A stretch of DNA of 39,651 bases from Escherichia phage MeretOppenheim_Bas102: the sequence record PQ850620.1; one strand, 5' to 3'. Both the position numbers and the translations under genes were made by a program. Below, piece after piece: positions 2,756 through 24,915 of this stretch. Each line of letters begins with the position of its first letter. Position 1 is the stretch's first letter. The notes under the pieces are model-generated. The model worked only from the letters and a program-made list of their open reading frames with translations, ran no database searches and was not told the origin of the DNA.

Positions 2756-2835
2756 TTTATTCACTGAGACTGCATAGTGATGCACTATAGACCACGGATG
2801 GTCAGTTCTTTAAGTTACTGAAAAGACACGATAAA

Positions 2836-2858
2836 TTAATACGACTCACTATAGGGAG
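2836..2858 (+). promoter_or_regulatory. T7 RNAP promoter phiOR
   Basis: exact 23-bp consensus TAATACGACTCACTATAGGGAGA between gene 19 and 19.5. Confidence 0.9.
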
Positions 2859-3012
2859 AGGAGGGACGAAAGGTTACTATATAGATACTGAATGAATACT
2901 TATAGAGTGCATAAAGTATGCATAATGGTGTACCTAAAGTGACCTCTAAGAATGGTGATTATATTGTATTAATATCACCTTAACTTAAAGACCAACATAA
3001 AGGAGGAGACTC

Positions 3013-5422: not shown

Positions 5423-6502
5423 ATGAATATTACCGACATCGTGAACGCTATCGACGCAATCAAAGCGCTACCAATCTGTGAAATTGACAAGCGTCAAAGT
5501 ATGCTTATCGACTTACTGGTTGAGATGGTAAGCAGCGAGACATGCGATGGCGAGATCACCGAACTGAATCAGGCACTTGAGCATCAAGATTGGTGGACTA
5601 CCTTGAAGTGCCTCACAGCTGACGCAGGGTTCAAGATGCTTGGTAATGGTCACTTCTCGGCTGCTTATAGTCACCCGTTGCTACCTAACAGAGTGATTAA
5701 GGTGGGCTTTAAGAAAGAGGACTCAGGCGCTGCGTATACCGCATTCTGCCGCATGTATCAGGGCCGTGCAGGCATCCCTAACGTCTACGATGTACAGCGT
5801 CACGCTGGATGCTATACGGTTGTACTCGATGCACTGAATGATTGCGAGCGTTTCAACAACGATGAACATTATAAATACGCTGAGATTGCAAGCGACATCA
5901 TTGACTGCAAATCAGATGCGCACGATGTGTTAACTGGATGGGATGGCGAGTTCGTCGAGACTTGCAAGTTAATCCGCAAGTTCTTTGAGGGAATCGCTTC
6001 GTTCGACATGCACAGTGGGAACATCATGTTCAACGATAATGATGTACCATACATTACCGACCCGGTATCATTCTCACAGAAGAAAGACGGTGGCTCGTTC
6101 AGCATTGACCCTGAGGAACTCATTAAGGAAGTCGAGGAGGTCGCACACCAGAGAGAAATCGACCGCGCTAAGGACCGTAAAGTACGCCACGAGGGGCGCT
6201 TAGAGGCACGCAGATGCAAGCGCCATAACCGCAAGGCTCGTAAAGCACACCAAGCGAAGAGCGAGAGAATGCTTGCTGCGTGGCGCTTGGCTGTACGTCA
6301 AGAACAACGAGACCATCAAATAGCTAGGTATGTACTCGGTAGAACTGCTCATGTCTTGCGCTGGGTGCAAATGCCTATGGTGGACTTTAAGGCACTTGAG
6401 GAACGAATCGCGCTGCACTGGCGTAAAGCTGACAGAGTGGCTGTAGCTAACGGTCTTCCGCTTAACATCGACAAGAAACTTGACGCAATGCTAATGGGTT
6501 GA
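5423..6502 (+). CDS. 0.7: gp0.7 serine/threonine protein kinase / host transcription shut-off protein
   Basis: 359-aa [28 protein letters not shown]...; same length and sequence family as T7 gp0.7. Confidence 0.93.
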
Positions 6503-6504
6503 TA

Positions 6505-6548
6505 GTCTTATCTTACAGGTCATCTACGGGTGGCCTGAATAGATACGA
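6505..6548 (+). promoter_or_regulatory. RNase III processing site R1 (predicted)
   Basis: CTTACAGGTCATCTACGGGTGGCCTGAATAG between 0.7 and gene 1. Confidence 0.5.
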
Positions 6549-6572
6549 TTTACTAACAGAAAGAGGCGCTAA

Positions 6573-9224
6573 ATGAACACGATTAACATCGCTAAGAACG
6601 ACTTCTCTGACATCGAACTAGCTGCTATTCCGTTCAATACTCTGGCTGACCATTACGGTGAGCGTTTAGCTCGCGAACAGTTGGCCCTTGAGCATGAGTC
6701 TTACGAAATGGGCGAAGCACGCTTCCGCAAGATGTTTGAGCGTCAGCTTAAAGCTGGTGAGGTTGCGGATAACGCTGCCGCCAAGCCTCTCATTACTACC
6801 CTACTCCCTAAAATGATTGCACGCATCAACGATTGGTTTGAGGAAGTGAAAGCTAAGCGCGGCAAACGCCCGACAGCATTCCAGTTCCTGCAAGAAATCA
6901 AGCCGGAAGCTGTAGCTTATATCACCATTAAGACCACTCTGGCTTGCCTCACTAGCGCAGACAATACAACCGTTCAGGCTGTAGCAAGCGCAATCGGTCG
7001 AGCCATTGAGGATGAGGCTCGCTTCGGTCGCATCCGTGACCTTGAGGCTAAGCACTTCAAGAAAAACGTTGAGGAGCAACTCAACAAGCGCGTAGGGCAC
7101 GTCTACAAGAAAGCATTCATGCAGGTTGTCGAAGCTGACATGCTCTCTAAGGGTCTTTTAGGCGGTGAAGCGTGGTCTTCGTGGCACAAGGAAGACTCTA
7201 TTCACGTAGGTGTGCGCTGCATTGAGATGATCATCGAGTCAACCGGAATGGTCAGCTTGAACCGCCAAAACGCTGGCGTAGTAGGGCAAGACTCTGAGAC
7301 TATCGAACTCACACCGGAATACGCTGAAGCTATCGCAACACGTGCGGGTGCACTGGCTGGTATCTCTCCGATGTTCCAACCTTGTGTAGTTCCTCCCAAG
7401 CCTTGGACTGGCATTACCGGTGGTGGCTATTGGGCTAATGGTCGCCGCCCTCTGGCACTGGTACGTACCCACAGCAAGAAAGCACTGATGCGCTACGAAG
7501 ATGTTTACATGCCTGAGGTGTACAAAGCGATTAACATTGCACAAAACACCGCATGGAAAATCAACAAGAAAGTCCTAGCGGTCGCCAACGTAATCACCAA
7601 GTGGAAGCACTGCCCTGTAGAGGACATCCCAGCGATTGAACGCGAAGAACTCCCGATGAAACCGGAAGACATCGACACGAATCCTGAGGCGCTCACCGCT
7701 TGGAAGCGTGATGCTGCCGCTGTGTACCGCAAGGACAAGGCTCGCAAGTCTCGTCGTATCAGCCTTGAGTTCATGCTTGAGCAAGCCAATAAGTTCGCTA
7801 ACCATAAGGCCATCTGGTTCCCTTACAACATGGACTGGCGCGGTCGTGTTTACGCTGTGTCAATGTTCAATCCGCAAGGTAACGACATGACCAAGGGACT
7901 GCTTACGCTGGCGAAAGGTAAACCAATCGGTAAGGAAGGTTATTACTGGCTGAAAATCCACGGCGCAAACTGTGCGGGTGTCGATAAGGTTCCGTTCCCT
8001 GAGCGCATCAAGTTCATTGAGGAAAACCACGAGAACATCATGGCTTGCGCTAAGTCTCCACTGGAGAACACTTGGTGGGCTGAGCAAGATTCTCCGTTCT
8101 GCTTCCTTGCGTTCTGCTTTGAGTACGCTGGGGTACAGCACCACGGCCTGAGTTATAGCTGCTCTCTTCCGCTGGCGTTCGATGGGTCTTGCTCTGGCAT
8201 TCAGCACTTCTCCGCGATGCTCCGTGATGAGGTAGGTGGTCGCGCTGTTAACTTGCTGCCCAGCGAAACCGTTCAGGACATCTACGGGATTGTCGCTAAG
8301 AAAGTCAACGAGATTTTGCAAGCAGACGTAATCAACGGGACCGACAACGAAGTAGTTACCGTTACCGATGAGAACACTGGTGAAATCTCTGAGAAAGTCA
8401 AGCTGGGCACCAAGGCGCTGGCTGGTCAGTGGTTGGCTTACGGTGTTACTCGTAGTGTGACTAAGCGTTCAGTCATGACGCTGGCTTATGGGTCCAAAGA
8501 GTTCGGATTCCGTCAACAAGTGCTGGAAGATACCATTCAGCCAGCCATTGATTCCGGTAAGGGTCTGATGTTCACTCAACCGAATCAGGCTGCTGGATAC
8601 ATGGCGAAACTGATTTGGGAATCTGTGAGCGTGACGGTGGTAGCTGCTGTGGAAGCTATGAACTGGCTTAAGTCTGCTGCTAAACTGCTGGCTGCTGAGG
8701 TCAAAGATAAGAAGACTGGAGAGATTCTTCGCAAGCGTTGCGCTGTACATTGGGTGACTCCTGATGGGTTCCCAGTGTGGCAAGAATACAAGAAGCCTAT
8801 TCAGACTCGCTTGAACCTGATGTTCCTCGGTCAGTTCCGTCTACAGCCGACCATTAACACCAACAAAGATAGCGAGATTGACGCTCACAAGCAGGAGTCT
8901 GGCATCGCTCCTAACTTTGTACACAGCCAAGACGGTAGTCACCTGCGTAAGACTGTAGTGTGGGCACATGAGAAGTATGGAATCGAGTCTTTTGCACTGA
9001 TTCACGACTCCTTCGGGACCATTCCGGCTGACGCTGCTAACCTGTTCAAAGCTGTTCGGGAAACTATGGTTGACACCTATGAGTCTTATGATGTACTGGC
9101 TGACTTCTATGACCAGTTTGCTGACCAGTTGCATGAGTCTCAATTGGACAAAATGCCAACGCTTCCGGCTAAAGGTAACTTGAATCTACGTGACATCTTA
9201 GAGTCAGACTTCGCGTTCGCGTAA
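6573..9224 (+). CDS. 1: single-subunit DNA-directed RNA polymerase (T7 RNAP, gp1)
   Basis: 883-aa ORF MNTINIAKNDFSDIELAAIPFNTLADHYGERLAREQLALEHESYEMGEARFRKMFERQ...; unmistakable T7 RNA polymerase. Confidence 0.98.
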   Translation: MNTINIAKNDFSDIELAAIPFNTLADHYGERLAREQLALEHESYEMGEARFRKMFERQLKAGEVADNAAAKPLITTLLPKMIARINDWFEEVKAKRGKRPTAFQFLQEIKPEAVAYITIKTTLACLTSADNTTVQAVASAIGRAIEDEARFGRIRDLEAKHFKKNVEEQLNKRVGHVYKKAFMQVVEADMLSKGLLGGEAWSSWHKEDSIHVGVRCIEMIIESTGMVSLNRQNAGVVGQDSETIELTPEYAEAIATRAGALAGISPMFQPCVVPPKPWTGITGGGYWANGRRPLALVRTHSKKALMRYEDVYMPEVYKAINIAQNTAWKINKKVLAVANVITKWKHCPVEDIPAIEREELPMKPEDIDTNPEALTAWKRDAAAVYRKDKARKSRRISLEFMLEQANKFANHKAIWFPYNMDWRGRVYAVSMFNPQGNDMTKGLLTLAKGKPIGKEGYYWLKIHGANCAGVDKVPFPERIKFIEENHENIMACAKSPLENTWWAEQDSPFCFLAFCFEYAGVQHHGLSYSCSLPLAFDGSCSGIQHFSAMLRDEVGGRAVNLLPSETVQDIYGIVAKKVNEILQADVINGTDNEVVTVTDENTGEISEKVKLGTKALAGQWLAYGVTRSVTKRSVMTLAYGSKEFGFRQQVLEDTIQPAIDSGKGLMFTQPNQAAGYMAKLIWESVSVTVVAAVEAMNWLKSAAKLLAAEVKDKKTGEILRKRCAVHWVTPDGFPVWQEYKKPIQTRLNLMFLGQFRLQPTINTNKDSEIDAHKQESGIAPNFVHSQDGSHLRKTVVWAHEKYGIESFALIHDSFGTIPADAANLFKAVRETMVDTYESYDVLADFYDQFADQLHESQLDKMPTLPAKGNLNLRDILESDFAFA

Positions 9225-9869: not shown

Positions 9870-10892
9870 ATGATGAACATTAAGACTAGCCCATTTAAAG
9901 CCGTGTCTTTCGTAGAGTCCGCCATTAAGAAGGCTCTGGGTAACGCTGGGTATCTTATCGCTGACATCAAGTACGATGGTGTACGTGGGAACATCTGCGT
10001 AGACAATACCGCTAACAGTTGCTGGCTCTCTCGTGTATCTAAAACGATTCCGGCGCTGGAGCACTTAAACGGGTTTGATGTTCGCTGGAAGCGTCTGCTG
10101 AACGATGACCGTTGCTTCTACAAGGATGGCTTCATGCTCGATGGGGAACTCATGGTCAAAGACGTAGACTTCAACACAGGGTCCGGCCTACTGCGTACCA
10201 AATGGACTGACACTAAGAACCAAGAGTTCCACGAAGAGTTATTCGTTGAACCGGTACGTAAGAAAGATAAAGTTCCCTTTAAGCTGCACGCCGGACACCT
10301 TCACGTCAAACTGTACGCTATCCTCCCGCTGCACATCGTGGAGTCTGGAGAAGATTGCGATGTCATGACGTTACTCATGCAGGAACACGTTAAGAACATG
10401 CTGCCTCTGCTACAGGAATACTTCCCTGAAATCGAATGGCAAGCGGCTGAATCTTACGAGGTCTACGATATGGTGGAACTACAGCAACTGTATGAACAGA
10501 AGCGTGAAGAAGGCCATGAGGGTCTCATCGTGAAAGACCCGATGTGCATCTATAAGCGCGGTAAGAAGTCCGGCTGGTGGAAACTTAAGCCTCTTGAGGA
10601 AGCTGACGGCATCATTCAAGGTGTAAACTGGGGAACCGAAGGGCTTGCTAACGAAGGTAAAGTGATCGGCTTTAGTGTCTTGCTAGAAAGCGGGTGTGTA
10701 GTAGATGCTAATAACATCTCACGGGAACTGATGGATGAATTTACAGCTAACGTTAAAGAACATGGCGAGGACTACTACAATGGGTGGGCTTGTCAAATTG
10801 GATTTATGGAGGTAACACCTAATGGAAACCTTAGACATCCGTCCTTCACCTGCTTCCGAGGAACTGAGGACAATCCGAAAGAGAAAGTATAA
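9870..10892 (+). CDS. 1.3: ATP-dependent DNA ligase (gp1.3)
   Basis: 340-aa ORF MMNIKTSPFKAVSFVESAIKKALGNAGYLIADIKYDGVRGN... with adenylation motif KYDG; C-terminal region shorter than T7 ligase as I recall it. Confidence 0.93.
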   Translation: MMNIKTSPFKAVSFVESAIKKALGNAGYLIADIKYDGVRGNICVDNTANSCWLSRVSKTIPALEHLNGFDVRWKRLLNDDRCFYKDGFMLDGELMVKDVDFNTGSGLLRTKWTDTKNQEFHEELFVEPVRKKDKVPFKLHAGHLHVKLYAILPLHIVESGEDCDVMTLLMQEHVKNMLPLLQEYFPEIEWQAAESYEVYDMVELQQLYEQKREEGHEGLIVKDPMCIYKRGKKSGWWKLKPLEEADGIIQGVNWGTEGLANEGKVIGFSVLLESGCVVDANNISRELMDEFTANVKEHGEDYYNGWACQIGFMEVTPNGNLRHPSFTCFRGTEDNPKEKV

Positions 10893-11292
10893 GTATAACC
10901 CTGCGGCTCCTTCGGGAGTCGTTTCTGCCTCTGGTAAACCAATAGGTTACAAGCGGAAAGATGGGTATTGGCTACTTTCTTATGGAGGAAAGCATGTACT
11001 TGCACACAGGGTGGTCTGGATGCTTAACTTCGGTGTCATACCGGAGGGAATGGTGATAGACCACATTAACAGAAACCCTAGCGATAACCGTATAGAGAAT
11101 CTTCGAATAGTAACTCAATCAGCTAACCTAATGAACGTAGGCGTCCGGTCTCATTGTAGGAGTGGAGAGAAGTTTATCTCCCTTGATGTGAGAACCGGAC
11201 GTTTTTCCGTTCGTATCAGGAGAAAATCCTATGGCACATATGGTACTCTCGAAGAGGCTATAGCTGTGCGCGATGCTAATACGACTCACTAA
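10822..11292 (+). CDS. HNH homing endonuclease with C-terminal AP2-like DNA-binding domain, overlapping ligase 3' end
   Basis: 156-aa ORF with HNH motif IDHINRNPSDNRIENLRIVTQSANLMN and AP2-like tail (GRFSVRIRRKSYGTYGTLEEAIAVRDA); own RBS GGAGG at 10808-10812 inside ligase ORF; occupies the position of T7 gene 1.4; true start uncertain. Confidence 0.75.
   Translation: METLDIRPSPASEELRTIRKRKYKYNPAAPSGVVSASGKPIGYKRKDGYWLLSYGGKHVLAHRVVWMLNFGVIPEGMVIDHINRNPSDNRIENLRIVTQSANLMNVGVRSHCRSGEKFISLDVRTGRFSVRIRRKSYGTYGTLEEAIAVRDANTTH
10902..10930 (+). terminator. TE-like early terminator (for host RNAP)
   Basis: hairpin CGGCTCC-TTCG-GGAGTCG followed by TTTCTGCC immediately after the ligase stop; resembles the T7 TE element (GGCTCACCTTCGGGTGGGCCTTTCTGCG) as I recall it. 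Confidence 0.55.
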
Positions 11293-11421: not shown

Positions 11422-11682
11422 ATGTTTCGACTTCATTACAACAAAAGCATTAAGAATTTCACGATTCGCCGTGCTGACCGTTCAATCGTATGTGCGAGCG
11501 AGCTCCGAGCTAAGTTACCTCTTATTGGTGACACAGTTCCTCTGGCACCGAGCGTACACATCATTATTACCCGTGGTGACTTTGAGAAAGCAATAGACAA
11601 GAAACGTCCGGTTCTTAGTGTGGCAGTGACCCGCTTCCCGTTCATCCGTCTGTTACTCAAACGAATCAAGGAGGTGTTCTGA
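11422..11682 (+). CDS. 1.6: gp1.6
   Basis: 86-aa [66 protein letters not shown]... downstream of phi1.6. Confidence 0.85.
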
Positions 11683-11910
11683 TGGGCAAAGACATGGTAA
11701 ACCAACCTGCGCATTATACTTCTGGCGGGATTGAGTGCCTTGACGCTATCAGGGCTTCGATGACAGAGGAGGCATTTAAGGGCTTCCTGAAAGGTAACGT
11801 ACTTAAGTATATGTGGCGCTACGAGAAGAAATTTAATCCAACTGAGGACTTAAAGAAAGCTCAGTGGTATTTGAAGCGTCTGGAGGAAGCAAATGAAAAG
11901 GATAAATCAT

Positions 11911-12257
<347 letters not shown>

Positions 12258-13946: not shown

Positions 13947-13947
13947 T

Positions 13948-13970
13948 TAATTGAACTCACTAAAGGGAGA
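13948..13970 (+). promoter_or_regulatory. T7 RNAP promoter phi3.8
   Basis: TAATTGAACTCACTAAAGGGAGA, the divergent phi3.8-type sequence, directly upstream of gene 4 here. Confidence 0.85.
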
Positions 13971-14002
13971 CCACAACGGTTTCCCTTTGTTCGCAATGTT
14001 GA

Positions 14003-15736
<1,734 letters not shown>

Positions 15737-15743
<7 letters not shown>

Positions 15744-15759
15744 ACTCACTAAAGGAGCT
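15737..15759 (+). promoter_or_regulatory. T7 RNAP promoter phi4.3
   Basis: TAATTAGACTCACTAAAGGAGCT; its +2 to +6 GGAG serves as RBS for the inserted HNH gene. Confidence 0.8.
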
Positions 15760-15765: not shown

Positions 15766-16191
15766 ATGGACACTAACTTAGCGAGATTTGAAATATTCTT
15801 GAAGATTGATGGTGACTGCTGGTTGTTCACTGGTGGAAGGGCGCACTCCTATGGAGTCTTCTGGATGAACGGTAAGAATCACAAGGCACATAGGGCCGCC
15901 TTCGAACTTTATAACGGGAGGAAACCTAATGGCGTTATACTACATTCTTGTGATAATCCTTTGTGCTGCAATCCCGCTCATCTATCTGAGGGAACTCAGC
16001 TTGATAATATGGTGGACATGGTTAGAAAGGGACGCTCATTGAGAGGTACTAAGAATCCAATGTGCAAGTTTACTGATGCGGATGTTAAGTTCATCCGAGA
16101 GTCTACCATGAAGGTCAAGGATTTAGCTGCTTTATTCGGAGTAACCCGCCAAACAATAACTAAATGGAGGAGGCACCAATGTTCAAACTGA
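15766..16191 (+). CDS. free-standing HNH (His-Me finger) endonuclease inserted between promoter phi4.3 and gene 4.3
   Basis: 142-aa ORF MDTNLARFEIFLKIDGDCWLFTGG... with motif HSCDNPLCCNPAHL and C-terminal HTH-like TRQTITKWRR; paralogous to gp7.7 and to the intron ORF; not present at this locus in T7. Confidence 0.8.
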   Translation: MDTNLARFEIFLKIDGDCWLFTGGRAHSYGVFWMNGKNHKAHRAAFELYNGRKPNGVILHSCDNPLCCNPAHLSEGTQLDNMVDMVRKGRSLRGTKNPMCKFTDADVKFIRESTMKVKDLAALFGVTRQTITKWRRHQCSN

Positions 16192-16391
16192 TTAAGAAAT
16201 TAGGCCAACTGCTGGTTCGTATGTACAACGTGGAAGCTAAACGCCTGAACGATGAGGCTCGTAAAGAAGCCACACAGTCACGCGCTCTGGCGATTCGCTC
16301 CAACGAACTGGCTGATAGCGCATCAAATAAAGTTACAGAAGCTGCCCGTGTAGCAAACCAAGCACAACAGCTTTCCAAATTCTTTGAGTAA
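16179..16391 (+). CDS. 4.3: gp4.3
   Basis: 70-aa ORF MFKLIKKLGQLLVRMYNVEAKRLNDEARKEATQSRALAIRSNELADSASNKVTEAARVANQAQQLSKFFE; RBS GGAGGAGG lies inside 3' end of the upstream HNH gene. Confidence 0.85.
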   Translation: MFKLIKKLGQLLVRMYNVEAKRLNDEARKEATQSRALAIRSNELADSASNKVTEAARVANQAQQLSKFFE

Positions 16392-16410
16392 TCAAACAGG
16401 AGAAACCATT

Positions 16411-16680
16411 ATGTCAAACGTAGCTGAAACTATCCGTCTATCCGATACCGCTGACCAGTGGAACCGTCGGGTTCACATCAACGTTCGTAACGGAAAGGCT
16501 ACTATGGTCTACCGTTGGAAGGACTCCAAGTCCTCTAAGAATCACACTCAGCGTATGACGTTGACAGATGAGCAAGCACTGCGTCTGGTCAATGCGCTTA
16601 CCAAAGCTGCCGTGACAGCAATCCATGAAGCTGGTCGCGTCAATGAAGCTATGGCTATCCTCGACAAGATTGATAGCTAA
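16411..16680 (+). CDS. 4.5: gp4.5
   Basis: 89-aa ORF MSNVAETIRLSDTADQWNRRVHINVRNGKATMVYRWKDSKSSKNHTQRMTL... Confidence 0.85.
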   Translation: MSNVAETIRLSDTADQWNRRVHINVRNGKATMVYRWKDSKSSKNHTQRMTLTDEQALRLVNALTKAAVTAIHEAGRVNEAMAILDKIDS

Positions 16681-16684
16681 GAGT

Positions 16685-16722
16685 GGTATACTCAAGGTCG
16701 CCCAAGTGGTGGCCTTCATGAA
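16685..16722 (+). promoter_or_regulatory. RNase III processing site R4.7 (predicted)
   Basis: CTCAAGGTCGCCCAAGTGGTGGCCTTCATG between 4.5 and phi4.7. Confidence 0.5.
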
Positions 16723-16724
16723 TA

Positions 16725-16747
16725 CTATTAGACTCACTATAGGAGGT
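16725..16747 (+). promoter_or_regulatory. T7 RNAP promoter phi4.7
   Basis: CTATTAGACTCACTATAGGAGGT upstream of gene 4.7. Confidence 0.75.
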
Positions 16748-16753
16748 ATTATC

Positions 16754-17161
16754 ATGCGTGACCCTAAAGTTATCCAAGCAGAAATCGCTAAGTTGGAAGC
16801 TGAACTGGAGGACGTTAAGTTCCATGAGGCCAAGACCCGCTCCGCTGTTCACATCTTGAAGAACTTAGGCTGGACTTGGACAAGACAGACTGGCTGGGAG
16901 AAACAAGAAGTTAACAAGCTGAGCCACAAGGTGTTCGATAAAGACACTATGACCCACATCAAGGCTGGTGATTGGGTTAAGGTTGCCATGGGAGTTGTTG
17001 TTGGATACGGCTACGTCCGCTCAGTTAGTGGTAAATATGCACAAGTGTCATACATCACAGGCGTCACTCCACGAGGAGCAATCGTTGCCGATAAGACCAA
17101 CATGATTCATACAGTCTTCTTGACAGTTGTCTCGTATGAAGAGATTGTTAAGTCACGATAA
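16754..17161 (+). CDS. 4.7: gp4.7
   Basis: 135-aa ORF MRDPKVIQAEIAKLEAELEDVKFHEAKTRSAVHILKNLGWTWTRQTGW... downstream of phi4.7. Confidence 0.85.
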   Translation: MRDPKVIQAEIAKLEAELEDVKFHEAKTRSAVHILKNLGWTWTRQTGWEKQEVNKLSHKVFDKDTMTHIKAGDWVKVAMGVVVGYGYVRSVSGKYAQVSYITGVTPRGAIVADKTNMIHTVFLTVVSYEEIVKSR

Positions 17162-17179
17162 TCAATAGGAGAAATCAAT

Positions 17180-19138
17180 ATGATCGTTTCTGACATCGAA
17201 GCTAACGCCCTCTTAGAGAGCGTCACTAAGTTCCACTGCGGGGTTATCTACGACTACTCCACCGCTGAGTACGTAAGCTACCGTCCGAGTGACTTCGGTG
17301 CGTATCTGGATGCGCTGGAAGCCGAGGTTGCACGAGGCGGTCTTATTGTGTTCCACAACGGTCACAAGTATGACGTTCCCGCATTGACCAAACTGGCAAA
17401 GCTACAATTGAACCGTGAGTTCCACCTTCCCCGTGAGAACTGTATCGACACCCTTGTGCTGTCACGCTTGATTCACTCTAACCTGAAAGACACCGATATG
17501 GGTCTTCTGCGTTCCGGTAAGTTGCCCGGTAAACGATTTGGGTCTCACGCTTTGGAGGCGTGGGGTTATCGCTTAGGCGAAATGAAGGGTGAATACAAAG
17601 ACGACTTTAAGCGTATGCTTGAAGAGCAGGGTGAAGAGTACGTTGACGGAATGGAGTGGTGGAACTTCAACGAAGAGATGATGGACTATAACGTTCAGGA
17701 CGTTGTGGTCACTAAGGCTCTACTTGAGAAGCTACTCTCTGACAAACACTACTTCCCTCCTGAGATTGACTTTACGGACGTAGGTTACACTACGTTCTGG
17801 TCAGAATCCCTTGAGGCCGTTGACGTTGAACATCGCGCTGCGTGGCTACTCGCTAAGCAAGAGCGAAATGGATTCCCGTTTGACACGAAAGCAATCGAAG
17901 AGTTGTACGTAGAGTTAGCTGCTCGCCGCTCTGAGTTGCTCCGTAAATTGACCGAAACGTTCGGCTCATGGTATCAACCTAAGGGTGGCACCGAAATGTT
18001 CTGCCATCCGCGAACAGGCAAGCCACTGCCTAAATACCCTCGCATTAAGACACCTAAAGTTGGTGGTATCTTTAAGAAGCCTAAGAACAAGGCACAGCGA
18101 GAGGGCCGTGAGCCTTGCGAACTTGATACCCGCGAGTACGTTGCTGGCGCTCCGTATACTCCAGTTGAGCACGTAGTGTTTAACCCTTCGTCTCGTGACC
18201 ACATCCAGAAGAAACTCCAAGAGGCTGGATGGGTCCCCACGAAGTACACCGATAAGGGTGCTCCTGTGGTGGACGATGAGGTACTCGAAGGAGTACGTGT
18301 AGATGACCCCGAGAAGCAAGCTGCTATCGACCTCATTAAAGAGTACTTGATGATTCAGAAGCGAATCGGACAGTCTGCTGAGGGAGACAAGGCATGGCTC
18401 CGTTACGTTGCCGAGGACGGTAAGATTCATGGTTCTGTTAACCCTAATGGAGCAGTTACGGGTCGTGCGACCCATGCGTTCCCCAACCTTGCGCAAATTC
18501 CGGGTGTACGTTCTCCTTATGGGGAGCAGTGCCGTGCTGCTTTTGGCGCTGAGCATCATTTGGATGGGCTAACTGGTAAGCCTTGGGTTCAGGCAGGTAT
18601 CGATGCATCCGGTCTGGAGCTACGCTGCTTAGCCCACTTTATGGCTCGCTTTGATAACGGTGAGTACGCCCACGAGATTCTTAACGGTGACATCCACACT
18701 AAGAACCAGATGGCTGCTGAACTGCCTACCCGTGATAACGCCAAGACGTTCATCTACGGGTTCCTGTATGGTGCTGGCGATGAGAAGATTGGGCAGATTG
18801 TTGGTGCTGGTAAAGAGCGCGGCAAGGAACTCAAGAAGAAATTCCTTGAGAACACCCCAGCTATTGCAGCACTACGCGAGTCTATCCAACAGACACTTGT
18901 CGAGTCCTCTCAGTGGGTAGCAGGTGAGCAACAAGTCAAGTGGAAACGCCGCTGGATTAAAGGTCTGGATGGTCGTAAGGTACACGTTCGTAGTCCTCAC
19001 GCTGCCTTGAATACCCTGCTCCAATCCGCTGGTGCTCTCATCTGCAAACTGTGGATTATCAAGACCGAAGAGATGCTCGTAGAGAAAGGCTTGAAGCACG
19101 GCTGGGATGGGGACTTTGCGTACATGGCATGGGTGCAT
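17180..19138 (+). CDS. 5: DNA polymerase (gp5), exon 1 encoding residues 1-653
   Basis: Family A polymerase with 3'-5' exonuclease domain ([26 protein letters not shown]...); reading frame ends ...[11 protein letters not shown] then runs into 7 aberrant codons and a stop at 19160-19162 unless spliced. Confidence 0.9.
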
Positions 19139-19739
19139 AAACTATTTCATTGTGCACATTAAATCTGGTGAACTCGGTGAAACCCTAATGGGGCAATACC
19201 GAGCCAAGCCATAGGGAGGATATATGAGAGGCAAGAAGTTAATTCTTGAGGCCACTGAGACTGGCTGTATCATCCCTACGTCACACAAACTTAATGCTGA
19301 TGGTTATTTCAGAAAGAAAACCAATGGCGTCTTGGAGATGTATCACAGAACGGTGTGGAAGGAGCATAATGGAGAAATACCTGAAGGCTCCGAGATAGAC
19401 CATAAGTGTCGCAATAGGGCTTGCTGTAACATAGAGCATTTACAGATGCTTGAAGGTACAGCCCACACTGTTAAGACCAATCGTGAACGCTACGCAGACA
19501 GAAAGGAAACAGCTAGAGAATACTGGCTGGAGACTGGATGTACAGGCCTAGCACTCGGTGAGAAGTTTGGTGTGTCGTTCTCTTCCGCTTGTAAGTGGAT
19601 TAGAGAATGGAAGGCGTAGAGACTATCCGAAAGGAGTAGGGCCGAGGGTGAGACTCCCTCGTAACCCGAAGCGCCAGACAGTCAACTCAAAGACTGATGA
19701 TATAGTCCGACACTCCTAGTAATAGGAGAATACAGAAAG
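19139..19739 (+). mobile_element. group I self-splicing intron (inferred) interrupting gene 5 at motif C
   Basis: 601-nt insertion starting after exon U19138 and ending with G19739; GTGCAC (19152-19157) pairs with exon end GTGCAT (19133-19138) giving P1 with U-G wobble at the splice site; TTTCAT (19146-19151) complements exon 2 start ATGAAA (19741-19746) = P10; GACTAT (19621-19626)/ATAGTC (19702-19707) candidate P7; exon frame restored exactly. Confidence 0.8.
19224..19619 (+). CDS. intron-encoded HNH (His-Me finger) homing endonuclease
   Basis: 131-aa ORF MRGKKLILEATETGCIIPTSHKLNADGYFRKK... with motif EIDHKCRNRACCNIEHL, own RBS GGGAGGA 4 nt upstream; lies wholly inside the inferred intron. 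Confidence 0.8.
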   Translation: MRGKKLILEATETGCIIPTSHKLNADGYFRKKTNGVLEMYHRTVWKEHNGEIPEGSEIDHKCRNRACCNIEHLQMLEGTAHTVKTNRERYADRKETAREYWLETGCTGLALGEKFGVSFSSACKWIREWKA

Positions 19740-19895
19740 GATGAAATCCAAGTAGGTTGCCGTACCGAAGAGATTGCTCAGGTTGTCATTGAGACTGCAC
19801 AAGAGGCAATGCGCTGGGTAGGAGACCACTGGAACTTCCGGTGTCTTCTGGATACCGAAGGTAAGATGGGTCCTAATTGGGCCGTATGTCACTGA
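19740..19895 (+). CDS. 5: DNA polymerase (gp5), exon 2 encoding residues 654-704
   Basis: in-frame continuation DEIQVGCRTEEIAQVVIETAQEAMRWVGDHWNFRCLLDTEGKMGPNWAVCH matching the conserved C-terminus of T7 DNA polymerase; spliced product 704 aa. Confidence 0.88.
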   Translation, partial: DEIQVGCRTEEIAQVVIETAQEAMRWVGDHWNFRCLLDTEGKMGPNWAVCH

Positions 19896-19914
19896 TTCTA
19901 TAGGAGAAATTATT

Positions 19915-20211
19915 ATGGCTATGACAAAGAAATTTAAAGTGTCCTTTGATGTTACCCTTAAGCTGGACAGCGAGACCGAAGAACTGATGCGAGAAAAGAT
20001 TCTGGACTTAGCACATCGTGCTGGTGCTGGTAAGGAGGTTGCGCCTATGGACCGAGAGTTGCTCGTTCAGGCTCTGACCAATGGGCCTGATGGCGCTGCT
20101 GCATTCGCTGTACGCCAAGGTCTACGTAAGGCTATCAAAGAGTTGTTCGAAGAGATGAGTGATGCGTCAATGTTCAAAGCGTCTCCTGCAACTGTACGGG
20201 AGGTGTTCTGA
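19915..20211 (+). CDS. 5.5: gp5.5 (H-NS binding protein in T7)
   Basis: 98-aa ORF MAMTKKFKVSFDVTLKLDSETEELMREKILDLAHRAGAGKEV... Confidence 0.88.
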   Translation: MAMTKKFKVSFDVTLKLDSETEELMREKILDLAHRAGAGKEVAPMDRELLVQALTNGPDGAAAFAVRQGLRKAIKELFEEMSDASMFKASPATVREVF

Positions 20212-20420
20212 TGTCTGACTATCTGAAAGTGCTGCAAGCAATCAAAAGTTGCCCTAAGACTTTCCAGTCCAACTATGTACGGAACAATGCGAGCCTTGTA
20301 GCGGAGGCCGCTTCCCGTGGTCACATCTCGTGTCTGACCACAAGTGGACGTAACGGTGGCGCTTGGGAAATTACTGCTTCCGGTACTCGCTTTCTGAAAC
20401 GAATGGGAGGTTGTGTATAA
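20211..20420 (+). CDS. 5.7: gp5.7
   Basis: 69-aa ORF MSDYLKVLQAIKSCPKTFQSNYVRNNASLVAEAASRGHISCLTTSGRNGGAWEITASGTRFLKRMGGCV; TGATG overlap with 5.5. Confidence 0.88.
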   Translation: MSDYLKVLQAIKSCPKTFQSNYVRNNASLVAEAASRGHISCLTTSGRNGGAWEITASGTRFLKRMGGCV

Positions 20421-20578
20421 TGTCTCGTGACCTTGTGACTATTCCACGCGATGTGTGGAACGATATGCAGGGCTACATCGACTCTCTGGAACGTGAGAAC
20501 GATAGCCTTAAGAACCAACTAATGGAAGCTGACGAATACGTAGCGGAACTAGAGGAGAAACTTAATGGCGCTTCTTGA
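20420..20578 (+). CDS. 5.9: gp5.9 (RecBCD inhibitor in T7)
   Basis: 52-aa acidic ORF MSRDLVTIPRDVWNDMQGYIDSLERENDSLKNQLMEADEYVAELEEKLNGAS; TAATG overlap with 5.7. Confidence 0.85.
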   Translation: MSRDLVTIPRDVWNDMQGYIDSLERENDSLKNQLMEADEYVAELEEKLNGAS

Positions 20579-21467
20579 CCTTAAACAATTCTACGAGTTA
20601 CGTGAAGGCTGTGATGACAAGGGTATCCTCGTGATGGACGGCGACTGGCTGGTCTTCCAAGCGATGAGTGCTGCTGAGTTTGATGCATCATGGGAGGAAG
20701 AGATTTGGCACCGCTGCTGCGACCACGCCAAGGCCCGTCAGATTCTTGAGGATTCCATCAAGTCCTACGAGACCCGCAAGAAGGCTTGGGTAGGTGCCCC
20801 GATTGTCCTTGCGTTCACCGATAGCGTTAACTGGCGTAAAGAACTGGTTGACCAGAACTACAAGGCTAACCGTAAGGCCACTAAGAAACCTGTAGGTTAC
20901 TTTGAGTTCCTTGATGCTCTCTTTGAGCGCGAAGAGTTCTATTGCATCCGTGAGCCTATGCTTGAGGGTGATGACGTTATGGGAGTTATTGCTTCCAATC
21001 CGTCTGCCTTCGGTGCTCGTAAGGCCGTAATCATCTCGTGCGATAAGGACTTTAAGACCATCCCTAACTGTGATTTCCTGTGGTGTACCACTGGTAACAT
21101 CCTTACTCAGACAGAAGAGTCCGCTGACTGGTGGCACCTCTTCCAGACAATAAAAGGTGACATCACCGATGGTTACTCAGGGATTGCGGGGTGGGGTGAT
21201 ACCGCCGAGGAGTTCTTGAATAATCCGTTCATTACCGAGCCTAAAACGTCTGTGCTTAAGTCTGGAAAGAACAAAGGCCAAGAGGTTACTAAATGGGTTA
21301 AACGCGACCCTGAGCCTCATGAGACGCTTTGGGACTGCATTAAGTCCATCGGTGCGAAGGCTGGTATGACCGAAGAGGATATTATCAAACAGGGCCAAAT
21401 GGCTCGCATCCTACGGTTCAACGAGTACAACTTTATTGACAAGGAGATTTACCTGTGGAGACCGTAG
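20565..21467 (+). CDS. 6: 5'-3' exonuclease (gp6)
   Basis: 300-aa ORF MALLDLKQFYELREGCDDKGILVMDGDWLVFQAMSAAEF... FEN/PIN-like exonuclease. Confidence 0.95.
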   Translation: MALLDLKQFYELREGCDDKGILVMDGDWLVFQAMSAAEFDASWEEEIWHRCCDHAKARQILEDSIKSYETRKKAWVGAPIVLAFTDSVNWRKELVDQNYKANRKATKKPVGYFEFLDALFEREEFYCIREPMLEGDDVMGVIASNPSAFGARKAVIISCDKDFKTIPNCDFLWCTTGNILTQTEESADWWHLFQTIKGDITDGYSGIAGWGDTAEEFLNNPFITEPKTSVLKSGKNKGQEVTKWVKRDPEPHETLWDCIKSIGAKAGMTEEDIIKQGQMARILRFNEYNFIDKEIYLWRP

Positions 21468-21568
21468 CGTATATTGGCATTGGTCTTTGTGGTCTCGGAG
21501 TGTGCCTCATTTCGTTGGGCCTTTGGGACTTAGCCCGAATAATCAAGTCGTTACACGACACTAAGTGA
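21455..21568 (+). CDS. 6.3: gp6.3 small protein
   Basis: 37-aa ORF from GTG overlapping 13 nt of gene 6 end, (M)ETVAYIGIGLCGLGVCLISLGLWDLARIIKSLHDTK; same size and overlap as I recall for T7 gene 6.3. Confidence 0.5.
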   Translation: METVAYIGIGLCGLGVCLISLGLWDLARIIKSLHDTK

Positions 21569-21632
21569 TAAACTCAAGGTCCCTAAATTAATACGACTCA
21601 CTATAGGGAGATAGGGGCCTTTATGATTATTA
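21566..21632 (+). promoter_or_regulatory. RNase III processing site R6.5 (predicted, spans phi6.5)
   Basis: AACTCAAGGTCC...GGGGCCTTTATGATTATT flanking the phi6.5 promoter. Confidence 0.45.
21589..21611 (+). promoter_or_regulatory. T7 RNAP promoter phi6.5
   Basis: exact consensus TAATACGACTCACTATAGGGAGA. Confidence 0.9.
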
Positions 21633-21665
21633 CTTTAAGATTTAACTCTAAGAGGAATCTTTATC

Positions 21666-21920
21666 ATGTTAACACCTATTCAACAACTACTTAAGAACCC
21701 TAACGATATTCCAGATGTACCTCGTGCAACCGCTGAGTATCTACAGGTTCGATTCAACCATGCGTATCTCGAAGCGTCTGGTCATATAGGACTTATGCGT
21801 GCTAATGGCTGTAGTGAAGCTCACATCTTGGGTTTCATTCAGGGACTACAGTATGCCTCTAACGTCATTGACGAGATTGAGTTACGCAAGGAACAACTAA
21901 GAGATGATGGGGAGGATTGA
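21666..21920 (+). CDS. 6.5: gp6.5
   Basis: 84-aa [87 protein letters not shown] downstream of phi6.5. Confidence 0.85.
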
Positions 21921-21924
21921 CCTT

Positions 21925-22191
21925 ATGTGTTTCTCACCGAAAGTTAAAGTTCCGAAGATGGATACCAATCAGATTCGAGCCGTTGAGCCAGCGCCTCTGA
22001 CCCAAGAAGTGTCAAGCGTGGAGTTCGGTGGGTCTTCTGATGAGACGGATACCGAGGGCACCGAAGTGTCTGGACGCAAAGACCTCAAGGTCGAACGCGA
22101 TGATTCCGTAGCGAAGTCTAAAGCCAAAGGTAATGGCTCCGCTCGTATGAAATCTTCAATCCGTAAGTCCGCATTTGGAGGCAATAAGTGA
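21925..22191 (+). CDS. 6.7: gp6.7 virion protein
   Basis: 88-aa ORF MCFSPKVKVPKMDTNQIRAVEPAPLTQEVSSVEFGGSSDETDTEGTEVSGRK...; start chosen at the Met matching T7 gp6.7, ORF frame opens at 21904. Confidence 0.85.
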   Translation: MCFSPKVKVPKMDTNQIRAVEPAPLTQEVSSVEFGGSSDETDTEGTEVSGRKDLKVERDDSVAKSKAKGNGSARMKSSIRKSAFGGNK

Positions 22192-22592
22192 TGTCTGAGT
22201 TCACATGTGTGGAGGCCAAGAGTCGCTTCCGTGCAATCCGGTGGACTGTGGAGCACCTTGGGTTGCCTAAAGGGTTCGAAGGGCGCTTTGTGGGCTACAG
22301 CCTCTACGTAGACGAAGTAATGGACATGTCCGGTTGTCATGAAGAGTACATTCTGGACTCTACCGGAAAACATGTAGCGTACTTCGCGTGGTGCGTAAGC
22401 TGTGATATTCACCACAAAGGAGACATTCTGGATGTAACGTCCGTTGTTATTAATCCTGAGGCAGACTCTAAGGGCTTACAACGATTCCTAGCGAAACGCT
22501 TTAAGAACCTTGCAGAACTCCACGATTGCAATTGGGTGTCCCGCTGTAAGCATGAAGGCGAGACAATGCGTGTATACTTTAAGGAGGTATAA
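22188..22592 (+). CDS. 7: gp7 host-specificity/virion protein
   Basis: ORF MMSEFTCVEAKSRFRAIRWTVEHLGLPKGFEGRFVGYSLYVDEVMD...; start may be the second ATG at 22191. Confidence 0.85.
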   Translation: MMSEFTCVEAKSRFRAIRWTVEHLGLPKGFEGRFVGYSLYVDEVMDMSGCHEEYILDSTGKHVAYFAWCVSCDIHHKGDILDVTSVVINPEADSKGLQRFLAKRFKNLAELHDCNWVSRCKHEGETMRVYFKEV

Positions 22593-22595
22593 GTT

Positions 22596-22898
22596 ATGGG
22601 TAAGAAAATTAAGAAGGCCGTGAAGAAAGTCACTAAGTCCGTTAAGAAAGTCGTTAAGGAAGTGGCCCGTCCTGTTAAACAGGTTGCCAGCGGTCTGGCT
22701 GGTGGTGCTGGTGAGGCACAGGTAGTGGAAGTACCAGCGGCTGCTGCAACTCCTGCTGCACAGATTGTTGACGTACCTGAGAAAGAGGTTTCCACTGAGG
22801 ACGAAGCACAGACCGAAAGCGGACGTAAGAAAGCCCGTGCTGGTGGTAAGAAGTCTTTGAGTGTGGCTCGTAGCTCTGGTGGAGGTATAAATATCTAG
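22596..22898 (+). CDS. 7.3: gp7.3 tail/adsorption protein
   Basis: 100-aa lysine/alanine-rich ORF MGKKIKKAVKKVTKSVKKVVKEVARPVKQVASGLAGGAGEAQ... Confidence 0.85.
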   Translation: MGKKIKKAVKKVTKSVKKVVKEVARPVKQVASGLAGGAGEAQVVEVPAAAATPAAQIVDVPEKEVSTEDEAQTESGRKKARAGGKKSLSVARSSGGGINI

Positions 22899-22912
22899 TC
22901 TTGGAGGTTGTC

Positions 22913-23305
22913 ATGGAGAATTGTATTGAGTGGACTAAAGGTACTAATCAGAAAGGTTATGGACGTAAGTGGGTGAACGGTAAACTGGTGTCTGCACATC
23001 GTCACGCTTACGAAGAAGTTCATGGTCCAATCCCACATGGTCTTGTTGTAATGCACCTCTGTGACAATCCTCGATGTTATAATGTGGAGCACTTGACTCT
23101 TGGGACACATGCGGACAATTCAGATGATAAAGTTCGGAAAGGTAGACAAGCCAGAGGAGAAACTCTCAGCAAGAAGCTAACAGCGAGCGACGTTTTGGAA
23201 ATCCGTAGCTTGACACTACCACACACCGAGATAGCCAAGATGTACGGTGTAAGTCAATCAACTATAACTCGCATAATTAGACGAGATACATGGAGGCATA
23301 TCTAA
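22913..23305 (+). CDS. 7.7: gp7.7 HNH (His-Me finger) homing-endonuclease-like protein
   Basis: 130-aa ORF MENCIEWTKGTNQKGYGRKWVNGKLVSAHRHAYEEVHGPIPHGLVVMHLCDNPRCYNVEHL...; canonical T7 position between 7.3 and portal gene. Confidence 0.85.
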   Translation: MENCIEWTKGTNQKGYGRKWVNGKLVSAHRHAYEEVHGPIPHGLVVMHLCDNPRCYNVEHLTLGTHADNSDDKVRKGRQARGETLSKKLTASDVLEIRSLTLPHTEIAKMYGVSQSTITRIIRRDTWRHI

Positions 23306-24915
23306 TGGCTGAGAAACGAACAGGACTTGCGGAGGATGGCGCTAAGTCTGTGTATGAGCGATTAAAGAACGACCGTGCTCCTTATGAGACACGCGCTCAG
23401 AATTGCGCTCAGTACACTATCCCTTCGTTATTCCCTAAAGACTCCGACAACGCCTCAACGGACTATACAACGCCGTGGCAAGCTGTAGGCGCTCGTGGTA
23501 TTAACAATCTAGCATCTAAATTAATGCTTGCACTATTCCCGATGCAAACATGGATGCGTCTTGCCATCTCAGAATATGAGGCCAAACAGTTACTCAACGA
23601 CCCAGATGCACTCGCTAAGGTCGATGAGGGTCTCTCGATGGTAGAGCGTATCATCATGAACTACATTGAGTCTAACAGTTACCGAGTGACTCTCTTTGAG
23701 GCTCTCAAACAGTTAGTCGTAGCTGGTAATGTCCTGCTGTACCTGCCGGAACCAGAAGGGTCGAACTACAATCCCATGAAGCTGTACCGATTGTCTTCTT
23801 ATGTGGTCCAACGAGACGCATTCGGCAACGTTCTGCAAATGGTGACTCGTGACCAGATAGCTTTTGGTGCTCTCCCTGAGGACATCCGTAAGGCTGTAGA
23901 AGGTCAAGGTGGTGAGAAGAAAGCTGATGAGACCATCGACGTGTACACTCACGTCTATCTGGATGAGGACTCAGGTGAATACCTCCGATACGAAGAGGTC
24001 GAGGGTATGGAAGTCCAAGGCTCAGATGGGACTTACCCTAAAGAGGCTTGCCCGTACATTCCGATTCGAATGGTTCGTCTGGACGGTGAATCCTATGGTC
24101 GTTCGTACATTGAGGAATACTTAGGTGACTTACGGTCCCTTGAGAATCTCCAAGAGGCCATCGTCAAGATGTCAATGATTAGCTCTAAGGTTATCGGCTT
24201 AGTGAATCCCGCTGGTATCACCCAGCCACGCCGACTGACCAAAGCTCAGACTGGTGACTTCGTTACTGGTCGTCCAGAAGACATCTCGTTCCTCCAACTG
24301 GAGAAGCAAGCAGACTTTACTGTAGCTAAAGCCGTAAGTGACGCTATTGAGGCTCGCCTTTCGTTTGCCTTTATGTTGAACTCTGCGGTTCAGCGCACAG
24401 GTGAACGTGTGACCGCCGAAGAGATTCGGTATGTAGCTTCGGAACTTGAAGATACTTTAGGTGGTGTCTACTCTATCCTTTCTCAAGAATTACAATTGCC
24501 TCTGGTACGAGTGCTCTTGAAGCAACTACAAGCCACGCAACAGATTCCTGAGTTACCTAAGGAAGCCGTAGAGCCAACCATTAGTACAGGTCTGGAAGCA
24601 ATTGGTCGAGGACAAGACCTTGATAAGCTGGAGCGTTGTGTCACTGCGTGGGCTGCTCTAGCTCCTATGCGCGATGACCCTGACATCAACCTTGCGATGA
24701 TTAAGTTGCGCATTGCGAACGCTATCGGTATTGACACTTCTGGTATCCTTCTTACCGAAGAACAGAAGCAACAGAAGATGGCCCAACAGTCTATGCAAAT
24801 GGGTATGGATAATGGTGCTGCTGCGCTGGCTCAAGGTATGGCTGCACAAGCTACAGCTTCACCTGAGGCTATGGCTGCTGCCGCTGATTCCGTAGGTTTA
24901 CAGCCTGGAATTTAA
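23305..24915 (+). CDS. 8: head-tail connector (portal) protein gp8
   Basis: 536-aa ORF MAEKRTGLAEDGAKSVYERLKNDRAPYETRAQNCAQYTIPSLFPKD...; TAATG overlap with 7.7; stop codon TAA doubles as start of phi9. Confidence 0.97.
   Translation: MAEKRTGLAEDGAKSVYERLKNDRAPYETRAQNCAQYTIPSLFPKDSDNASTDYTTPWQAVGARGINNLASKLMLALFPMQTWMRLAISEYEAKQLLNDPDALAKVDEGLSMVERIIMNYIESNSYRVTLFEALKQLVVAGNVLLYLPEPEGSNYNPMKLYRLSSYVVQRDAFGNVLQMVTRDQIAFGALPEDIRKAVEGQGGEKKADETIDVYTHVYLDEDSGEYLRYEEVEGMEVQGSDGTYPKEACPYIPIRMVRLDGESYGRSYIEEYLGDLRSLENLQEAIVKMSMISSKVIGLVNPAGITQPRRLTKAQTGDFVTGRPEDISFLQLEKQADFTVAKAVSDAIEARLSFAFMLNSAVQRTGERVTAEEIRYVASELEDTLGGVYSILSQELQLPLVRVLLKQLQATQQIPELPKEAVEPTISTGLEAIGRGQDLDKLERCVTAWAALAPMRDDPDINLAMIKLRIANAIGIDTSGILLTEEQKQQKMAQQSMQMGMDNGAAALAQGMAAQATASPEAMAAAADSVGLQPGI

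Follow-up and report, generated by a model that had tools for sequence, protein, structure and literature searches.

Four probable HNH homing endonuclease genes in separate slots of the T7-like Escherichia phage MeretOppenheim_Bas102

The HNH genes of the window

We analysed the complete sequence of Escherichia phage MeretOppenheim_Bas102 (record PQ850620.1; 39,651 nucleotides, and this whole stretch is called the window below) for genes encoding HNH endonucleases, which lie beside or inside its ligase, primase/helicase, DNA polymerase and portal genes. With a gene order that starts at 17.5, wraps round and ends at 17, the window represents an entire T7-like (Teseptimavirus) genome, and it holds the full set of T7 core genes in the same order as in T7. 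An initial annotation had reported three paralogous endonuclease genes, the middle one intronic. All three were found as intact open reading frames (ORFs), and the middle one does lie inside an intron of the polymerase gene 5. The count was incomplete, since a fourth gene with the same domain is present near the ligase gene. We consider it highly probable that the window carries four independent HNH_3 homing endonuclease genes of three subfamilies, each in its own characteristic slot (a slot is named here by its two flanking genes, for example 4/4.3). The genes are as follows.

10822-11292, plus strand: HNH_3 gene of the 1.45 type, between the ligase gene 1.3 and gene 1.5 (PF13392, E 7.6e-20)
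15766-16191, plus strand: free-standing endonuclease gene with HNH_3 and a C-terminal helix-turn-helix (HTH), slot 4/4.3 (PF13392, E 3e-12; HTH_23 sub-threshold)
19224-19619, plus strand: intron-encoded HNH_3 endonuclease gene, 131 amino acids (aa) (PF13392, E 2.4e-15; phrog_6254, E 6e-47)
22913-23305, plus strand: gp7.7-type endonuclease gene with HNH_3 and HTH, between gene 7.3 and the portal gene 8 (PF13392, E 4.9e-15)

This reading is built on what the genes directly display, namely their domains and catalytic motif, precise insertion, a patchy and slot-specific distribution, purifying selection and a divergence discordant with that of their surroundings. All four proteins scored above the curated HNH_3 (PF13392) cut-off of 24.8 bits (46.3 bits for the gene at 15766, 56.3 at 19224, 55.3 at 22913 and 70.7 at 10822), and an alignment showed the four ORFs to be intact with their catalytic residues in place. 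Across this alignment H60 and N64 (numbered after the first sequence) do not vary; the terminal N is present, with H in the type formed by the intron protein and T3 gp5.3. The core motif described initially, H.C[DR]N[PR].C[CY]N..HL, was confirmed, as it occurs at exactly three sites in the six-frame translation (15943-15984, 19401-19442 and 23054-23095), each in an HNH_3-positive ORF, and not once in 200 shuffles. A C-x4-C-C/Y pattern is present in the three ORFs and absent from the 1.45-type ORF. The zf-His_Me_endon profile (PF05551) reached 19-21 bits for the 4/4.3 and 7.7 proteins, under its cut-off of 27, and left the intron protein unmatched.

A family profile made from the four window proteins matched I-HmuI (PDB 1U3E) with an E-value of 1.4e-5 across the DH...N...N catalytic stretch, and this was its only significant match among solved structures. 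Single-sequence PDB searches with the intron protein and the 4/4.3 protein yielded chance matches only; the alignment profile was needed to reach I-HmuI. I-HmuI is an HNH nicking homing endonuclease encoded by the ORF of a phage DNA polymerase intron (Bacillus phage SPO1), and thus the same kind of element as the window intron, although it is a distant relative whose intron site and DNA-binding extensions differ from those of the window element.

The gene at 10822-11292 belongs to another type. It lacks the Cys cluster, shows an IDH..N..N arrangement and falls with T7 and 13a gp3.8 in one superclade (bootstrap 99), with 37-46% identity to T7 gp3.8 over the core. Its product is 99.3% identical to that of phage JeanTinguely and 81% identical to gp1.45 of phiYeO3-12, both in the same slot, and is the orthologue of the latter. 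The gene is 99% identical to that of JeanTinguely while the ligase flank reaches just 86-94%, and the ratio of nonsynonymous to synonymous divergence (dN/dS) was 0.40 in one comparison. This Cys-less group of T7 gp3.8 and phiYeO3-12 gp1.45 includes none of the three ORFs reported initially.

For those three ORFs dN/dS was 0.02-0.25 (0.02-0.25 for the intron ORF, 0.11-0.14 for the 4/4.3 gene and 0.04 for the 7.7 gene), near the 0.02-0.15 of gp4 and gp8. Their synonymous divergence (dS) lies far above that of gp4 and gp8, which adjoin two of them. Intact ORFs, low dN/dS and high dS together fit long-lived endonuclease lineages that move between phage backbones. We rejected decaying pseudogenes because the ORFs are intact with low dN/dS, recent intragenomic duplication because pairwise identity is too low, and HNH nucleases of the HK97 packaging kind because the genes are dispensable or missing in relatives.

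The intron of DNA polymerase gene 5

The gene 5 region has the following features, all on the plus strand. Statements on the splice site leave out phage LNA7.

17180-19138, plus strand: gene 5 exon 1, 653 codons, ending TGG GTG CAT (W-V-H, motif C); 99.5% identity to T7 gp5 (tblastn)
19139-19739, plus strand: group I intron of 601 nt (RF00028), following the exon U and ending in a terminal G (...GAAAG)
19740-19895, plus strand: gene 5 exon 2, 51 codons and stop, starting GAT GAA (D-E, motif C); 98% identity to T7 gp5 (tblastn)

An E-value scan of 19100-19780 gave a match to RF00028 at 19129-19729 (45.0 bits, E 3.4e-10) that covers the full model, 1-253, with the ORF as a single large insertion. 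P1 can be drawn with nine pairs: GUGCAU/AAA, of which GUGCAU (19133-19138) is exon sequence, faces the internal guide AUUGUGCAC (positions 19149-19157), and the U.G wobble falls at the 5' splice site. Joining 17180-19138 to 19740-19892 yields 653+51 codons, colinear with the 704-aa T7 gp5, so the host gene is restored uninterrupted. These data bear out the intronic position of the middle ORF, and the annotation of gene 5 needs two exons, joined over the 601-nt group I intron, just as the gene is given as a two-piece join in 13a and JeanTinguely. A 601-nt intron is found at the same site in 13a, JeanTinguely, AH67C600_Q5, PDP351P2 and Sekstaphage-1. The exons flanking the site are nearly invariant between intron-plus and intron-less alleles, except for base -4, which is G in all intron-plus alleles examined (GTGCAT/GAT, the slash marking the junction) and A in intron-less ones (GTACAT/GAT); the G pairs with C in P1.

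The element is of the I-TslI intron type known from phages phiI (AY769989) and W31 (AY769990): it interrupts the same host gene at the same point of motif C, WVH/DE, and carries its ORF within the ribozyme as one insertion. We measured this likeness against the relatives 13a, K1F, LNA7 and PDP351P2. The phiI/W31 intron ORF has been placed in P6a (PMC3428280). T7-like DNA polymerase introns are called self-splicing in the title of Bonocora & Shub 2004, as cited in PMC3428280. In PMC8845596, I-TslI appears among the homing nicking endonucleases encoded by introns, with Bonocora & Shub 2009 as the source, and site-specific cleavage of endonuclease-less alleles and super-Mendelian inheritance in crosses are attributed, for I-TslI and T3 gp5.3, to that 2009 paper, which PMC8845596 and PMC10448857 cite. 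Intron type, HNH ORF and the kinship to T3 gene 5.3 were already published in 2004 and 2009. The phenomenon is known, the window genome is an ordinary case of it, and the importance beyond annotation is small.

T3 gp5.3 is the closest free-standing relative of the intron protein in our panel (51% identity over 88 aa, E 3e-30; clade bootstrap 81). It differs in that it lies free-standing beside an intron-less gene 5 and, with 101 aa annotated, is without the C-terminal ~40 aa of the intron protein. T3 gp5.3 is reported to cut polymerase genes that lack the intron, and to do so exactly where I-TslI does.

The intron ORF does not follow its surroundings in divergence. Its product is 99.2% identical to those of LNA7 and PDP351P2, 96% to those of the Teetrevirus phages Sekstaphage-1 and VSG32, 87% to that of 13a and 79% to that of K1F, and the 96% contrasts with an overall aligned identity of ~77% between those Teetrevirus phages and the window. 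Compared with the 13a type, the ribozyme parts are 96-97% identical, while the ORF is 81% identical in nucleotides (dS 1.19, dN/dS 0.07), and the gene 5 exons are 94-95% identical to those of 13a despite this ORF dS of 1.19.

Two observations concern the neighbourhood of the intron. Gene 5 itself (window 17500-19100) is 93-98% identical to that of T3 and Sekstaphage-1, the rest of those genomes being ~75% identical, and this suggests that the polymerase gene may be shared across the two genera. Gene 5.5 (19915-20211, directly 3' of exon 2; PF11247, Phage_T7_55) encodes a protein with 49% identity to T7 gp5.5, and its nucleotide identity is 86-91% to C5, JB01 and T3, and ~70% to T7, 13a and LNA7; therefore, the best-matching genomes change just after the intron.

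Slots, occupancy and relationships across T7-like phages

We searched 16 T7-like genomes with a hidden Markov model of the HNH core only, and found 48 HNH genes in 12 physical slots (13 matrix labels). The slots are 1.2/1.3, 1.3/1.5, 2.5/3, 3/3.5, 3.5/4, 4/4.3 (4/4.7 in Kvp1), the gene 5 intron, 5/5.5, 7.3/8, 18/18.5 and 19/19.5, together with two genes at the place of the ligase in VSG32. The latter, in a T3-like Klebsiella phage, are adjoining HNH genes at 6656-7643 between genes 1.2 and 1.6, where a ligase gene was not detected. Phage phiA1122 has two further annotated HNH endonuclease genes, one at 6383-6853 in the 1.7/1.8 region, which the core profile overlooked, and one at 8369-8827 between genes 3 and 3.5; therefore, the family has more slots than the census counted.

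The slots that are empty in the window include those from which the initial annotation had reported genes 3.8 and 5.3 to be absent, and this absence was confirmed by gaps of 71 and 19 nt. Slot 2.5/3, which holds gene 2.8 in T7, is also empty.

2756-3012, no strand: empty slot 19/19.5 (gene 19.4 in 13a), with a phiOR-type promoter (2837-2859) only; an HNH gene occupies this slot in nine of the 16 panel genomes
13947-14017, no strand: empty slot 3.5/4 (gene 3.8 position), 71 nt; gene 3.8 is present in T7, 13a, phiA1122 and PDP351P2
19896-19914, no strand: empty slot 5/5.5 (gene 5.3 position), 19 nt

Calling both of these loci canonical HNH sites was right in part. T7 gp3.8 is an HNH_3 protein (PF13392, E 3e-15) of the Cys-less type, but T7 gp5.3 is a PD-(D/E)XK nuclease (PF11645, PDDEXK_5, E 1e-10), with no BLAST similarity to the window HNH proteins. 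It is in T3 that the 5/5.5 slot holds an HNH gene 5.3 (E 5e-19); Kvp1 has an ORF there annotated as similar to T7 gp5.3. Two corrections to annotation follow: there are four HNH homing endonuclease genes in the window genome, not three, and T7 gene 5.3 is not an HNH gene.

According to PMC4925675, homing endonuclease content is one of the main respects in which T7-like phages differ. Mapping presence and absence showed the same in our panel, where nearly all 16 genomes differ in their occupancy pattern and only N30 and JB01 agree, which rules out a stable lineage trait. The 7.7 gene is absent from N30, JB01, JeanTinguely and PDP351P2, and the 4/4.3 gene from T7, 13a, phiA1122, JeanTinguely and PDP351P2. 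Gene 3.8 and the intron ORF are both present in 13a and PDP351P2, and AH67C600_Q5 has five HNH genes, among them those of 2.8, 4/4.3, the intron, 7.7 and 19.4. The intron is found in nine of the 16 genomes; slot 5/5.5 is occupied in none of these nine, versus three of the seven intron-less genomes (T3, T7 and Kvp1), for which a Fisher test calculated by hand gives p of about 0.06. There is no linkage between the intron and the free-standing genes, since it accompanies the 4/4.3 gene in three of seven genomes and the 7.7 gene in four of seven, versus nine of 16 overall. The 4/4.3 gene occurs without the intron in C5, N30, JB01 and Kvp1, and the 7.7 gene in C5, T7 and phiA1122.

The 4/4.3 gene begins at an ATG (15766) with a ribosome-binding site of its own, and at its 3' end it runs across the start of gene 4.3 (16179).

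15737-15759, plus strand: homologue of promoter phi4.3 (TAATTAGACTCACTAAAGGAGCT), directly 5' of the 4/4.3 endonuclease gene, aligning with phi4.3 of T7 and 13a

Promoter phi4.3 is annotated in 13a at the homologous place. In the endonuclease-minus genomes (T7, 13a, JeanTinguely and PDP351P2) the phi4.3 leader, ending ...ACTCACTAAAGGAGACACC, directly abuts the ATG of gene 4.3. In the window, LNA7, AH67C600_Q5, JB01, C5 and N30 a cassette of ~415 nt stands between leader and ATG, with boundaries that are precise against the four genomes lacking it. The encoded protein is 96.5% identical to that of LNA7, 86-88% to those of C5, N30, JB01 and AH67C600_Q5, and 70% to that of Kvp1, where the gene is annotated as a '2.8-like homing endonuclease'. 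The lineage is rare, with 10 records at an identity of at least 60% among 50,697 phage records. The protein belongs to the same subfamily as T7 gp2.8 and gp7.7 (44-45% identity to each), sharing with them the H-x-C-D-N-P-x-C-C/Y-N-x-x-H-L...G-T...N core, KGR and YGV(S/T)xxTI, and the slot that it holds is empty in T7.

The window 7.7 protein is the orthologue of T7 gp7.7 by position and sequence (72% identity), with 92% identity to that of C5 and 91% to that of LNA7. Its dS against C5 and LNA7 is 1.2-1.4, whereas the adjacent gene 8 has 0.23-0.33, a difference of about four- to sixfold. The 7.7 slot houses two deep lineages, a T7 type and a 13a type, which are 49% identical, and the 19/19.5 slot likewise houses two, from different superclades.

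We compared the window proteins with each other and with their slot-mates. Over 112 aa the 4/4.3 and 7.7 proteins share 45% identity (E 2e-27), and both have a C-terminal helix-turn-helix, as do T7 gp2.8 and gp7.7. Identity between the intron protein and the 4/4.3 protein is 26% (E ~1e-6), and the intron protein matched the 7.7 protein over a 52-aa core only. In a neighbour-joining tree of the 48 HNH_3 genes from the 16 genomes (100 bootstraps), proteins group mostly by slot. The groups were supported as follows.

Superclade I (1.45, 3.8 and T3-group genes): bootstrap 99
Intron ORFs alone: bootstrap 99
Intron ORFs with T3 gp5.3: bootstrap 81
Superclade III (2.8, 7.7, 4/4.3, 19.4 and 3/3.5): bootstrap 88
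4/4.3 genes with that of Kvp1: bootstrap 100
T7-type 7.7 genes: bootstrap 99
The three ORFs and their slot-mates as an exclusive group: bootstrap 0 (0/100)

The three ORFs had been called paralogous. This holds only loosely: the 4/4.3 and 7.7 proteins belong together in the gp2.8/7.7 subfamily, within superclade III, and the intron protein groups with T3 gp5.3. For every window endonuclease gene, other phages carry orthologues of 87-99% identity in the corresponding slot, public genomes hold counterparts there that are 92-99% identical, and the nearest relatives of the four sit in different phages, another genus included.

This pattern has to be set against the background of the genome. The 10-kb region holding the three ORFs is 92-93% identical in nucleotides to C5, N30, 13a and T7. 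A near-identical genome was sought in the phage collection and none was found: for a query of 24.7 kb, the top match covered 91% at ~93% identity. When eleven relatives were compared in sliding windows, the result was a strongly mosaic backbone with breakpoints at many places along the window genome, and an overall identity of 86-89% to Teseptimavirus and ~77% to T3-like genomes. Sporadic presence at a fixed site with intact flanks and a phylogeny discordant with that of the host genome mark the genes as probable homing endonuclease genes. The mobility proposed initially is thus supported by patchy occupancy, the precise 4/4.3 cassette, scattered closest relatives and raised dS. Patchy occupancy together with clustering by slot fits slot-specific endonuclease genes that would have been gained and lost independently by homing.

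Flanking tracts, proposed homing and alternative explanations

Both free-standing genes near the replication and portal functions adjoin a tract in which an essential gene diverges from its relatives.

15395-15718, plus strand: last ~320 nt of gene 4 (primase/helicase), a divergent tract; candidate co-conversion or target-immunity tract
23305-23605, plus strand: first ~300 nt of the portal gene 8, a variable tract adjoining the 7.7 slot

Endonuclease-plus and endonuclease-minus genomes are ~97% identical up to 323 nt before the gene 4 stop; identity then drops to ~84% between -323 and -83 and drops again, to 68-72%, over the final 83 nt, while the minus genomes are 97-100% alike within this tract. 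The C-terminal DWSND(S/T)DF of gp4 is retained. The tract includes the codons for the C-terminal tail of gp4, which contacts the polymerase. In gene 8 the window is 72-95% identical to relatives over the first 300 nt, lowest against genomes without 7.7, and mostly 90-100% identical from 300 to 600 nt. From these comparisons we infer that the gene 4 and gene 8 tracts may be co-conversion or target-immunity tracts, and cleavage, target sites and homing of the window enzymes are likewise proposed from sequence.

We propose the following scheme. In a mixed infection, each enzyme would nick or cut a specific site in or beside the neighbouring essential gene of a phage without that enzyme, and recombinational repair would then copy the endonuclease gene and flanking DNA into the recipient. 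The intron copy would be self-protected because the intron interrupts its target, in keeping with flanking exons that hardly vary except at one base paired in P1. Free-standing copies may be protected by sequence differences in the neighbouring gene, which would be seen as the ~300-nt divergent tracts in genes 4 and 8. The empty 3.8, 5.3, 2.8 and 19.4 slots would be merely unoccupied in the window lineage. The divergence gradients in genes 4 and 8 are concrete places in which to seek the 4/4.3 and 7.7 target sites, and they could be a small test case of free-standing homing endonucleases diversifying adjacent essential genes.

Several points weigh against this scheme of independent homing into separate slots, or limit its base. 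The target sites rest on flank divergence only, and ordinary mosaic recombination could yield the same. The strong purifying selection on the 7.7 gene (dN/dS 0.04) could also mean that the gene does something useful for the phage. The 396-nt ORF insertion keeps the RF00028 score, at 45 bits, under the Rfam gathering score of 50, and a scan of the whole window at the gathering threshold was empty. The census panel is a sample, 16 genomes of more than 850 T7-like records.

A more far-reaching proposal is that the tracts go beyond ordinary mosaicism and are traces of an arms race, still under way, that sets endonuclease specificity against target immunity. The four genes would then form a homing endonuclease gene (HEG) island by which T7-like genera are driven to exchange their replication module. 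Barth et al. 2023 (PMC10448857) used the term 'HEG islands' for endonuclease genes that bracket essential genes, and the window resembles these in the position of its genes, beside or inside the ligase, primase/helicase, DNA polymerase and portal genes, and in its mosaic flanking tracts. On such a reading, the 96-97% identity of the ribozyme core versus 81% for the intron ORF would mean that the ORF was replaced inside a resident intron. The window differs from the 'HEG islands' in that co-occurrence in the panel of 16 genomes shows no linkage between the endonuclease genes, and we regard this extension as rather unlikely.

The free-standing HNH proteins, gp7.7 above all, could instead have been domesticated to serve the phage, by excluding co-infecting relatives or in DNA processing. 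Selection on 7.7 (0.04) and 4/4.3 (0.11-0.14) is very strongly purifying and comparable to that on gp4 and gp8, and both sit tidily in the genome, where start and stop signals overlap. Such selection is also expected of an active homing endonuclease, though, and a role of this kind overlaps with homing without excluding it. The genes are hardly indispensable: T7 genes 3.8, 5.3 and 7.7 can be deleted (PMC12153263), and the panel includes four close relatives without 7.7 (N30, JB01, JeanTinguely and PDP351P2) and five genomes without 4/4.3. We therefore judge domestication improbable.

The initial annotation had also raised collaborative homing, in which the 4/4.3 or 7.7 enzyme would cleave the intron site or aid the spread of the intron, and the intron would protect the genome. 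The concept is established for T3/T7-like phages and a cyanophage (PMC10448857, PMC6083498, PMC3984707); the convergence of a free-standing endonuclease and an intron on one site is credited to the 2009 work on T3/T7-like phages where PMC3984707, PMC10448857 and PMC2988022 refer to it. The intron ORF is moreover kin to the free-standing T3 gp5.3. Yet the scheme needs an ORF-less intron, and the window intron has an intact 131-aa HNH ORF under purifying selection. It also needs an adjacent free-standing endonuclease, but slot 5/5.5 is 19 nt long, the upstream gene 4.7 is not a nuclease gene, and the free-standing genes lie ~2.9 and ~3.2 kb off in separate slots. Relatives carry the 4/4.3 and 7.7 genes with or without the intron, and the divergent tracts adjoin their own slots, in genes 4 and 8, and not gene 5. 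Collaboration of this sort is therefore very improbable in the window.

Least tenable of all is the proposal that one family was redistributed from loci 3.8 and 5.3 to new places near the replication genes, the three ORFs being recent paralogues: they do have the HNH_3 core and the Cys-containing motif in common and loci 3.8 and 5.3 are empty, yet their pairwise identity is 26-45% with saturated divergence beside 87-99% for same-slot orthologues in other phages, the tree sorts mostly by slot with 0/100 for an exclusive clade of the three, T7 gp3.8 falls in another superclade (bootstrap 99), T7 gp5.3 has the PD-(D/E)XK fold, and the gene combinations of 13a, PDP351P2 and AH67C600_Q5 show no occupancy trade-off between slots.

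Some further features of the genome lie away from the endonuclease genes. At the gene 1.7 position (11682-11945) the window encodes an 87-aa DUF3310 protein (PF11753, E 5e-25) with 38% identity to T7 gp1.7, and none of the eleven genomes compared matches the segment 11750-12000 at the nucleotide level. In the region 33681-39651, gp16 is 67% and gp15 80% identical to the T7 proteins. Similarity of the tail fibre gene to T7 gp17 is confined to the N-terminal part (37728-38600), and therefore the receptor-binding end is of a different type.

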